Part shown: piece by piece, positions 6,001-9,000 of the stretch
Layout: every line of letters starts with the position of its first letter
How positions within the stretch are numbered: the first letter of the stretch is position 1
Assembly: GCF_002441935.1 (NCBI RefSeq)
Contig: NZ_CP023668.1
Coordinates: 1-64,000 of the forward strand
Length of the DNA: 64,000 nt
Direction of reading: 5' to 3'
DNA from: Mesoplasma lactucae ATCC 49193
Lineage (GTDB): Bacteria; Bacillota_I; Bacilli_A; Mycoplasmatales; Mycoplasmataceae
Program-made: the position numbers

Positions 6001-9000
6001 AAAAAGAATTTTTTCCAATATTTAAATAAATTTTAGAGTTTATTCCAAGAATCATGGACTGTGATTTGTTAACAATTAATCTAATTTTGTGCTATCAATC
6101 ATGGACTGTGTTTAGCTAACACTTATTTCAAAAATATGATATATAGGAGCTTTTATGGACTGTGATAAGCCGAGAATTTTTCATTTTTTATGGTATGAAG
6201 ATCTATTTCATGGACTGCGATTTGTTAACAAAATTTTGTAATTTATGGTATGGGCTATGGACTGTGAAATGACTACAAAATTTTTATTTTTGTGATATGA
6301 GAACCCAAATTCATGGACTGCGATTTGTTAACAATTAATCAAATTTTGTGATAAATAAGCAAAGGAAAAACCGATCTTAACGACCGGTTTTGTGGACTGT
6401 GATTTAATCACACTTATTTAAAATTTAATATCTAGTTAATAACTTTTGATTTATTATATAAATCTCCAAAGTTTGTATATTTAACAAAGTTTTCATAATT
6501 AAAGACTTCATAGAAAGAATTTTTACCTCTTCCTGGAAGATAATTATTCGTTCACATTGAGTTTAAAGTATTATAAGCAAATGTATCTGCTGGGTTATTT
6601 TCAAAATAAACATTCTTTTCTAAAGGATTATATTGAGCATATTTCTTATCTAAAGCGTTTGTTCCATTTAGTTTTGTTTCTTTTCAAGCTTCATATCCAA
6701 TGGTTGTTGTTGGAACATAGTTAGCAGCTAAAGCTAGTTTATTTAATTTATCTCCTGAAAGTACATAATCAATAAATCCATTTACAGTAGCTTCTTTTAA
6801 ACTAGCGTTTTTACCAACTGATTTAAACCCAGCTAATCCTAAAGTTCTTGATCAGTTTTTTAATTCACCACTTCTAGTAGTATCTGCTGTCATGTTTAAA
6901 CATTGTCCAAATTCATCATCATTTGGTTGTAATGATTCATTGTCTTTATTTGGATTGAAAGTTTCTTTTGAGTTCCCATCTTTGATTCATTTTTGATATT
7001 GTTTTGAATTTTGATTAATTTGCATTTTACCAAGTTTATATCCTTCAGGATAGGGAATAGCGATTGGTTTATTTCCATCATCCATTCCTTGGTTTGCTAC
7101 TCATTCATTTTTAGTTTTACTTCAACGATATGGTTTGATATCAAGTGGAAATAAACCAGCAGTTGAACAAGAACTCATTAACATTTTTCCTTTTCTCATT
7201 GTAACTGAGGTATAAGTTTTTTGACCTGAATTAACTGGTGCTCCAATAAAGTAACCTGAGTCCATAATTTTTTGGAAATAGTCTCCATCTTTGACATTGA
7301 ATTTCATGTCAAAGTTATCACCAGTTCCAGTTGTTTTATAGTCAAAAACAAAGTTTTCGTTAGGTTTATAAGCACCAGTTCCTGTAGCTTGATTTTCAAA
7401 GATTTGGTAAGTAAAATCATCAAATCCAAGCATAGGAATTTTGTTACCTTTTTCATCTCTTGAAAGGTCGGGTCTAGAATCTCAAACTTTAAGTAAATCT
7501 AAAACTTCATCATAAGTAAAGGTTTTATTTAGTACTCAATCTTTTCCTGTTAATTGTTTGTAAACTTTCGCATTCACGATATTAACGTTAAATGATTTAA
7601 AGATTGGTGCACCAATTTGACGATTTTCAAAGTTAAATTCTGGTAAAAAAGTTTCGTTAATAGTTGAGAGATTATTGAATTCTCTAATTTGATTTTTAGC
7701 TTCACTAACTGCATATTGGCGAACATTTCCAGGTCTAGTCAGAATTAAGTCCGGAAGCTGATATCCGGCAGCTATTTTTGTATAGGTGCTTTTTGTTTCA
7801 TAGTAAGCATGAATTTTAGGAAGTTCTGGATGTTCTTTTGCTCAATATTCATTAAAAGTATCAATAACACCAGTTTTATCATCATTAGTTCAAGCTTTTC
7901 TTGAAGGTTCAGCATAACCCATAACATCGCTTCCTAATGCAAATTGTGGTTCTTCATCTATTTTTGGATGAAAAGGTGTAAAGGCTAGTGTTAAGCCGAC
8001 TCCTGTAGCCAGAAATAAAACTACAAGAACTCATTTCCAGGTTTTTTGAAAGAATTGATTTATTTTGTTCATTGTTTTAAGACTCCTTTCATTAATGGTC
8101 TATTAAAGATTACGAATCCAACAAAGATTGGAGCCATGCTCAATGTAGCTGTAGCCATTTTTAAGTTAACAAGGTTTACACCTGCATTAACTTTTATTCC
8201 AAATCCCATTTTTGCAAGTTGATCAGAACTTAAAGTATTAATGTAGTACATAAGAACAGGAACGGTTGCAAACTTACTTCCGGGTTCCATAACTAAGATT
8301 GGTCATAAAACAGCATTTCAAGCTGTAATAAATTGCACCATAAAGTTAGTCAAGATTGCTGGAACTATAGCTGGAATTGCTATAGTTCAGAAGTACTCTC
8401 CTGGAGTCATTCCATCAACCATAGCGGCTCTTTTTGTATTTGGTGTTAGTCTATAGAACATACTTCTAAATTGATAAATTCCATAAACATTTCCAATAAA
8501 AGGCAGGATTAAAGCTAAAGCTGAGTTTTGTCATCCTAAAGCGGTATTTTGCATAAATCTACCTAGTAATAATGCTTCAGCTGGAATTGTCATAACTGCT
8601 GCAAATAAGCATTGTACAAAGGTATTAAATTTAGTTTTTCAGTAGTATAAACCAAAGCCGGCTAAAGCACAGATAAGGGTTTGAAAAATCATCATAACTG
8701 TTGTGATTCACAATGAGTTTGTGAAGTATTGTCAGGTTGGAATATTATTTTTTTCTGAAGTTATTTTAAATAAGGTTTTATAAGCATCTGTATTCCAAGT
8801 TTTTGGTAAGAAATTATTTGAAGTTCCTAATTCTTCAAAAGACTTAAATGAATTTAAAACCATGTAAATTAATGGTAATAATATTCCAATTGCTAGAATG
8901 GATAAACCGAAAACTAAACCAATCTGAATCCAATATTTTTTATTTGTTTTTCGCATGTTTTTTCTCCCTTCAAATTAGTGCATTAGCAATTGTTAAGATT

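Follow-up and report, generated by a model that had tools for sequence, protein, structure and literature searches.

Mesoplasma lactucae ATCC 49193 has a genome of one contig (837,471 bp, 29.8% G+C, genetic code 4; completeness 94.6%), for which GC skew and a cluster of DnaA boxes place the origin at ~711 kb and the terminus at ~298 kb. The window analysed here is the first 64,000 nucleotides of that contig (NZ_CP023668.1), and its coordinates are those of the contig. Within it, a short array of repeated boxes is flanked on both sides by tandem minus-strand ABC operons. At 132 kb from the origin, the array lies at neither origin nor terminus. The features of the locus are as follows.

4938..5663, minus strand: PD-(D/E)XK exonuclease-like gene that follows the riboswitch (phrog_298, E 3e-16)
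5783..5846, minus strand: 2'-dG-I riboswitch aptamer, left of the array (RF01510, 66.7 bits)
5922..5940: copy 1 of a 19-bp palindrome, before the riboswitch
6030..6035, minus strand: TAAAAT, a -10 candidate 19 nt from box 1
6054..6100, plus strand: unit 1; box at 6055, TGT-N9-ACA dyad, TRTG at 6088, TA at 6093, -10 TATCAA (A at -7)
6101..6154, plus strand: unit 2; box at 6102, TRTG at 6135, -10 TATATA
6155..6209, plus strand: unit 3; box at 6156, TRTG at 6189, -10 TATGAA
6210..6256, plus strand: unit 4; box at 6211, TRTG at 6244, -10 TATGGG
6257..6312, plus strand: unit 5; box at 6258, TRTG at 6291, -10 TATGAG
6313..6366, plus strand: unit 6; box at 6314, TRTG at 6347, -10 TAAATA; nearly a duplicate of unit 1
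6367..6391, minus strand: hairpin, best read from the fold energy of each strand as the intrinsic terminator of the ABC operon (10807 to 6432)
6392..6431, plus strand: unit 7; box at 6393, no in-register TG-n-TA, out-of-register TAAAAT at 6419-6424
6432..8072, minus strand: g00006, 546 aa, last gene of the ABC operon, to the right of the array and convergent to it

The two ABC operons (553-4954 and 6432-10807) carry the same four-gene set and are diverged tandem copies; the sister genome G001 has one copy, in a different place. The product of g00006, for which we found no Pfam or NCBIfam match, is likely the operon's substrate-binding protein. To the left of the array, the phage-type exonuclease gene lies directly behind the 2'-dG riboswitch and is fused into the ABC operon, and its G001 homologue, with a lipoprotein-like N-terminus, is found near the same operon. 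A second copy of the riboswitch, at genome 612886-612957, is not accompanied by an array. Upstream of the first copy is a perfect DnaA-type box (5945-5953, minus strand) set in 15 nt identical to the origin region, and a near match to this box lies upstream of the second. The palindrome, TAGTTTCA-N3-TGAAACTA, has two further genomic copies, one at the start of an oligopeptide ABC gene (~117076-117094) and one after a dihydroxyacetone-kinase-like operon (~355630-355648), the labels of the genes beside the copies coming from reading of protein sequences; it is likely the operator of a different regulator.

The array sits in a variable part of the chromosome. From ~818 kb round to 24 kb the sequence differs from that of G001 and encodes integrase, methyltransferase, GmrSD, AIPR, Fic and Old-like genes. 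An Xre-type HTH gene followed by an Old-like ATPase-TOPRIM gene (11221-13447) and a PHP-like gene with an ATPase gene (16396-18822) have no match in G001 and are candidate defence genes. Elsewhere in the sister genome (G001, contig C1, 445000-451300), Cas9, Cas1 and Cas2, labelled from their protein sequences, accompany an array of 66-bp period.

All seven plus-strand boxes reported by the first-pass annotation were recovered at their positions, with box-to-box spacings of 47, 54, 55, 47, 56 and 79 bp, and no plus-strand gene was found downstream of them. Contigs from two DNA studies, both of which may be the source of the assembly, cover 4831-8500 with no differences, again as first described. 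The genome-wide tally was also reproduced: TGGAnTGYG[AT] matches 17 times, with seven matches in the array, five in a distant prophage-like island and five scattered. An order-4 Markov model predicts 0.52 occurrences of TGGACTGYG and 11.7 of TGGAnTGYGW per genome, so the five scattered matches are at chance level. Under the same model, five boxes on the coding strand of the island have a probability of ~5e-8, and seven within 350 bp are far beyond chance.

Units 1 to 6 share one order of elements: the box, a TGT-N9-ACA dyad, an AT-rich spacer and TRTG-n-TA. Numbered as promoters, the units have the box at about -51 to -41 and a dyad that extends to -31 (the -12 position of the island sites falls at index 38 in three and 39 in two). 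The earlier statement that the array is not a simple tandem duplication needs revision, as the units are paralogues; the spacers of units 1 and 6 are 96% alike, those of units 2 and 7 and of units 6 and 7 are 70% alike, and the rest range from 35 to 65%, which leaves 20 of the 21 unit pairs at 35-70%. By sequence, then, the units arose by duplication. Across units 1 to 6, invariant columns make up 9 of 10 in the box, all four of TG/TA (-15/-14 and -12/-11) and 4 of 23 in the spacer. Fisher tests against the spacer gave p values of 1.6e-4 for the box, whose columns had been chosen in part from the array sequences, and 0.004 for TG/TA, both overstated because the six units are kin, descending from about three lineages. 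Searches with the array spacers returned nothing elsewhere beyond short chance hits. A CRISPR array was considered and rejected, since the spacers are paralogues 35-96% alike rather than unrelated; cas1 (PF01867) was not found in the single M. lactucae contig, the control having matched in 7 of 14. A type III antitoxin or other structured RNA repeat was also rejected, with no consensus base pairs and a convergent next gene.

The array had been described as closing on a terminator hairpin. That hairpin instead lies between boxes 6 and 7, and it is far better formed on the minus strand (10-bp stem plus U tract, -12.6 kcal/mol, z -3.7, 0 of 200 shuffles as good) than on the plus strand (one mismatch, -8.3 kcal/mol, z -0.9, 37 of 200 shuffles as good). 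It is therefore best read as the terminator of the minus-strand ABC operon and not as the closing element of the array, and it could act weakly on the plus strand as well. With this assignment, box 7 falls inside the 3' UTR of that operon.

The second set of boxes belongs to an island of 13 kb at ~431.8-444.9 kb, ~430 kb from the array; the corresponding site in G001 is empty. Its boxes, at 437267, 437817, 440155, 440655 and 444908, are all on the minus strand and each heads a gene. A matrix built from the array ranks the sites at 440655 and 437267 directly after its own seven; the island matrix ranks array units 5, 1 and 7 next after the island sites, and a joint matrix places all 12 on top. 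Unit 5 has 15 nt identical to the island box at 440655. When an A at -1 is added to the box, the matches are six in the array, five in the island and one in coding DNA. A de novo test for words at a fixed distance before -10-like sites recovered the box at 5 of the island's 53 such sites; in four related elements it did not recover the box, and no word there exceeded 2 sites. Three of the five island boxes directly follow a hairpin, as does array unit 7; two sit where the related G001 element has genes missing from the island, and one lies inside the non-conserved tail of a coding sequence. The island is 271 kb from the origin and the array 132 kb, so the array is copied before the island.

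Island genes match a 19-kb G001 contig as well as elements in G006, G101 and G103, and a 456-aa island protein has a match in 13 of the 79 family genomes scored, M. lactucae included. The genes are full length, and codon-position identity follows the order 2 > 1 > 3 in six of seven pairs, a pattern that may predate integration and is not proof of present selection. Genes for proteins of 134, 385 and 581 aa in the G001 element, which from gene order, motifs and one weak PHROG hit appear to be scaffold, capsid and terminase, had no tblastn match in M. lactucae; the scaffold hit is at E 0.003, and the model of the capsid candidate has a pLDDT of 37.5 and does not confirm its identity. The island is thus likely a prophage lacking head genes. 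Its proteins had no match in the phage collection, viral and metagenome contigs yielded no loci akin to it, and no att-like direct repeat was found at its ends. Four further homologues of island proteins (P0009-P0012) were found at the protein level. No structural identity was obtained for a 357-aa protein of the island. Between 431829 and 444831 a three-gene module (456/404 aa, 723/700 aa, lipoprotein) occurs twice, with the long pair 44% identical, which suggests the merger of two related elements. The G001 contig (C5:1-18968) is a whole phage-like element with terminal inverted repeats and a transposase of the Mbov_0401 ICE type but no integrase; its relatives are in G006, G101, G103 and, weakly, genus g8, with none among 50,697 phage records. 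In keeping with the first-pass annotation, the box does not occur in this intact element, and all 785,926 bp of G001 contain two isolated loose matches.

The same restriction emerged from broader searches. The tandem pattern of the array was absent from the 81 other genomes of the family, as originally claimed. Across 251 genomes of the order, the box plus -10 was matched five times in M. lactucae and twice in G008; the G008 pair is one duplicated region, which we take to be virus-like, with the match just before a start codon, and was put down to chance. In viral contigs, none of 120 stretches (of an estimated ~810) with a loose box and TGnTA held three boxes in 400 bp, and a stricter pattern gave three single matches. 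In GTDB contigs the tandem pattern was listed at 119 of an estimated ~210 loci from unrelated taxa, 12 of them with at least three boxes in 400 bp; the one of these 12 that was read (L191) is a plain tandem repeat. The exact unit-1 pattern was matched nowhere in metagenomes. Among the lineages searched, the box regulon is specific to that of M. lactucae.

We then compared the -10 elements of array and island. Following units 1 to 6, TG-n-TA stands in the same register as in three of the five island promoters, the other two being shifted by 1, which upholds the original observation on spacing. The TG at -15/-14 is found in all six units and is absent from unit 7; TRTG is the Firmicutes form of the -10 extension. 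The claim that array and island share a promoter layout does not extend to the end of the -10, as T at -7 is present in all five island sites and in none of the six array units. In its place units 1 to 6 have A, A, A, G, G and A, all purines, and the three bases completing the -10 are not conserved among them. All five island sites read TAnAAT (three exact TAWAAT, two TAGAAT), whereas TAWAAT is in register in none of the six. Across 324 upstream regions, AAT after TGnTAn is enriched (52 sense versus 10 antisense), and it occurs in no array unit. A consensus promoter scan likewise detected no array unit; the -10 matrix collapsed onto its seed and serves only as a test for TAWAAT.

Promoters of M. 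florum are described as having TAWAAT and a TG that is conserved in part, while a -35 is not clearly recognisable (PMC7745072). Structural work on promoter melting reports that -11A and -7T flip into pockets of sigma and that a purine cannot be accommodated in the sigma70 pocket for -7 (PMC4496690). With a purine at -7 in all six -10 elements, the array copies are, judged by their sequence, likely unable to fire. We infer that the array retains the part of a promoter that is read as double-stranded DNA and has lost the part that stabilises opening. The purine in units 1 to 6 may reflect a single ancestral event. According to PMC4496709, protection by the initial closed complex runs from -55 to -5, and the unit length of 47-56 bp is close to this footprint.

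Family searches of the M. lactucae genome, which yielded a partial inventory, did not identify the regulator that reads the box. The sigma-type proteins found were RpoD and a 107-aa sigma region-4 protein, with no other; the remaining regulators found were two Xre-type HTH proteins, two MarR proteins, a metal-sensing repressor, one GntR and one RpiR. A Crp-family candidate was rejected, the Crp-HTH hits being the two MarR proteins, and no Rex was found in this genome. A matrix scan found no good box before any of these regulator genes. HTH proteins encoded at 13124, 161532 and 620496 are among the candidates. The one candidate from the island is a 134-aa CxxC-CxxC zinc-finger protein (genome 440160-440564), encoded by the only early-region gene kept there, whose box is the closest to those of the array and would therefore suit positive feedback. 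The protein has one homologue (P0003 was discarded as a spurious repeat match), and its model has a pLDDT of 71. Structure searches gave it no known fold, with a best Z of 4.9 among 48,161 chains and no Foldseek hit at E below 0.001, and its Atlas matches were all below 0.9. With its centre near -41, the site would suit an activator of class II. The box could also be a repressor site, because Mesoplasma promoters are reported to need just TAWAAT and TG (PMC7745072), and the island promoters may fire without an activator, their -10 elements perhaps sufficing. The factor may thus be an activator or a repressor, and may be chromosomal or come from an incoming phage.

At the promoters of T4 MotA, Mu Mor/C and P2 Ogr, an upstream box at about -50 to -30 replaces the -35 and keeps a fixed distance to an extended -10. 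The island promoters have the same box-to--10 layout, although no homologue of these activators was identified. 6S RNA is an RNA mimic of an open promoter that acts on all sigma70 holoenzyme; the array would likewise be a promoter mimic holding polymerase, but made of DNA and addressed to one small regulon. The box may also bear some likeness to CRP sites, to the C-boxes of restriction-modification systems, to the stoperators of mycobacteriophages and to the ends of IS256. As a chromosomal cluster of sites unlinked to its target that would lower a free trans-acting protein, the array resembles datA as described in PMC12371093; its seven sites are shared with five unlinked ones ~430 kb away. 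It differs in consisting of whole promoter front ends with a crippled -10 and in having five mobile-element promoters as targets, and datA is additionally reported to inactivate DnaA (PMC12371093). Synthetic decoys and sponges also use repeated operator or promoter copies with differing spacers, as set out in PMC3322331, PMC8599769 and PMC7686491; those were engineered and tested, whereas the array is natural and has only seven sites. Overall, the array would work like a titration locus or a synthetic sponge and belongs to no named family. An exact-word search of open-licence literature found no natural array of disabled phage promoters. Engineered decoy arrays have been studied extensively; to our knowledge, dedicated natural ones in bacteria are known mainly for replication initiators, and we know of no decoy array of activator-dependent phage promoters.

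Several other explanations have to be weighed against titration. The array could be a relic: a phage region since lost may have left behind a run of promoter-terminator cassettes that collapsed, was amplified by slippage and is now decaying without function. Its model would be the PeSL cassettes of T4-type phages, in which repeated promoter motifs lie beside terminator hairpins in a variable region and recombination between copies can delete the intervening genes (PMC2839356). One of the seven array units (unit 7) and three of the five island boxes do directly follow a hairpin, the flanking 33 kb are variable relative to G001 with many defence-type genes, and two island boxes occupy positions that in the G001 element are taken up by genes missing from the island. 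PeSLs, as that source describes them, are strong working promoters with genes between them, while the array units have an upstream box, lack T at -7 and enclose no genes; a strong-consensus promoter of the PeSL kind was rejected on the consensus scan and the missing T. Moreover, decay would not have spared the box and TG/TA while spacers diverged to 35-70% in 20 of 21 pairs, and no ORF remnants lie between the units, so we consider a relic unlikely. A working role as weak, factor-dependent plus-strand promoters, giving antisense RNA or collisions with the ABC operon when the regulator is active, seems quite unlikely as well. The perfect TRTG-n-TA of all six units, the convergence of the array on g00006 and the TAAAAT of unit 7 at 6419, beyond the hairpin, would all suit such promoters, but the six purines at -7 would not, the hairpin separates the six units from g00006, and the units are shorter than the advanced or open complex (to +20 according to PMC4496709), so that neighbours would clash.

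Control might instead be local, with the bound regulator acting on the neighbouring minus-strand riboswitch-exonuclease-ABC operon or blocking read-through, and so tying nucleoside uptake to island induction. The minus-strand TAAAAT 19 nt from box 1 has the gap seen at two island promoters, provided that the site is symmetric, and a DnaA-type box and a palindromic operator are already present in the interval between array and riboswitch. Yet the box is asymmetric and points away from the riboswitch operon, nearer -10 candidates exist for the riboswitch, the second riboswitch copy does without an array, and the conserved TG/TA of six units would be left unexplained; we regard this as improbable. 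It is very improbable that the boxes are recombination or transposon sites, whether ends or targets of the Mutator-type transposase that related elements carry or sites used by the tyrosine recombinase encoded 18 kb from the array. That idea draws on the inverted repeats and transposase at the ends of the G001 element and on the 5' edge of the box (~-51), which matches the insertion point of p-MULT 3, 15-17 bp upstream of the -35 (PMC3942029). The G001 transposase, however, scores as Mbov_0401 ICE type and not as ISLre2, Mycoplasma ICE insertion is described as random in the same source, and M. lactucae gave no PF00872, PF00665 or tblastn match to that transposase. The box is also unlike the ends of the element, and its inverted matches near the array or island all carry two mismatches and lie in coding DNA; with neither the cognate transposase nor paired inverted ends found, p-MULT ends or targets were rejected. 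Finally, because the box begins with ATG, we asked whether the units could be coding sequences for short peptides (in code 4, M-D-C-D...L-W-Y) or give rise to processed repeat RNAs, and find either scarcely credible. ATG starts the box in six of seven units and the variable box positions are third codon positions, but every frame meets a stop after 4 to 42 codons, and in the spacers it is position 3 that differs least (30 differences, compared with 50 and 58). The unit RNAs fold with z from -0.7 to +0.6 and no consensus structure, and the array had no Rfam match above threshold.

The reading that we favour, at a little under an even chance, is that the array comprises seven duplicated island-promoter front ends, the -10 elements lacking T at -7, and serves as a decoy titrating the putative regulator of the island. 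The first-pass annotation had already proposed a decoy; the shared box, the shared register and the lack of a downstream plus-strand gene support that proposal, while the hairpin as closing element falls away. The loss of T at -7 in six of six units in which box and TG/TA are kept strengthens it. In mechanistic terms, one protein would bind the box at about -51 to -31 on all 12 sites, and may recruit RNA polymerase to TRTG-n-TA in a closed complex unable to open stably, each 47-56 bp unit holding one such complex. If the seven array sites take the regulator before the island's five, or equally with them, the island would switch on only above the decoy load, with its onset delayed and sharpened. 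For an auto-activated E. coli regulator, added decoys are reported to have postponed activation and produced bimodality (PMC8599769); comparable results are reported from yeast (PMC3322331).

A fuller version of the titration reading is possible but doubtful. The host would have amplified a phage-type promoter, keeping the half read in double-stranded DNA and losing the melting base, to form a natural promoter-mimic sponge that traps activator and polymerase in dead-end closed complexes; this would set a threshold for the domesticated headless prophage, or blunt an incoming relative from within a defence hotspot. The array is known from one genome, and seven sites are few against a replicating phage. 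Were the factor to come from an incoming phage, the array would be a DNA-only defence element. If the titration reading is true, an 837-kb genome in which seven sites are set against exactly five targets would offer a natural test of titration thresholds on a very small scale. The array would also serve as ready bait for the regulator, in a group in which one sigma factor is considered to carry out nearly all transcription (PMC7745072).
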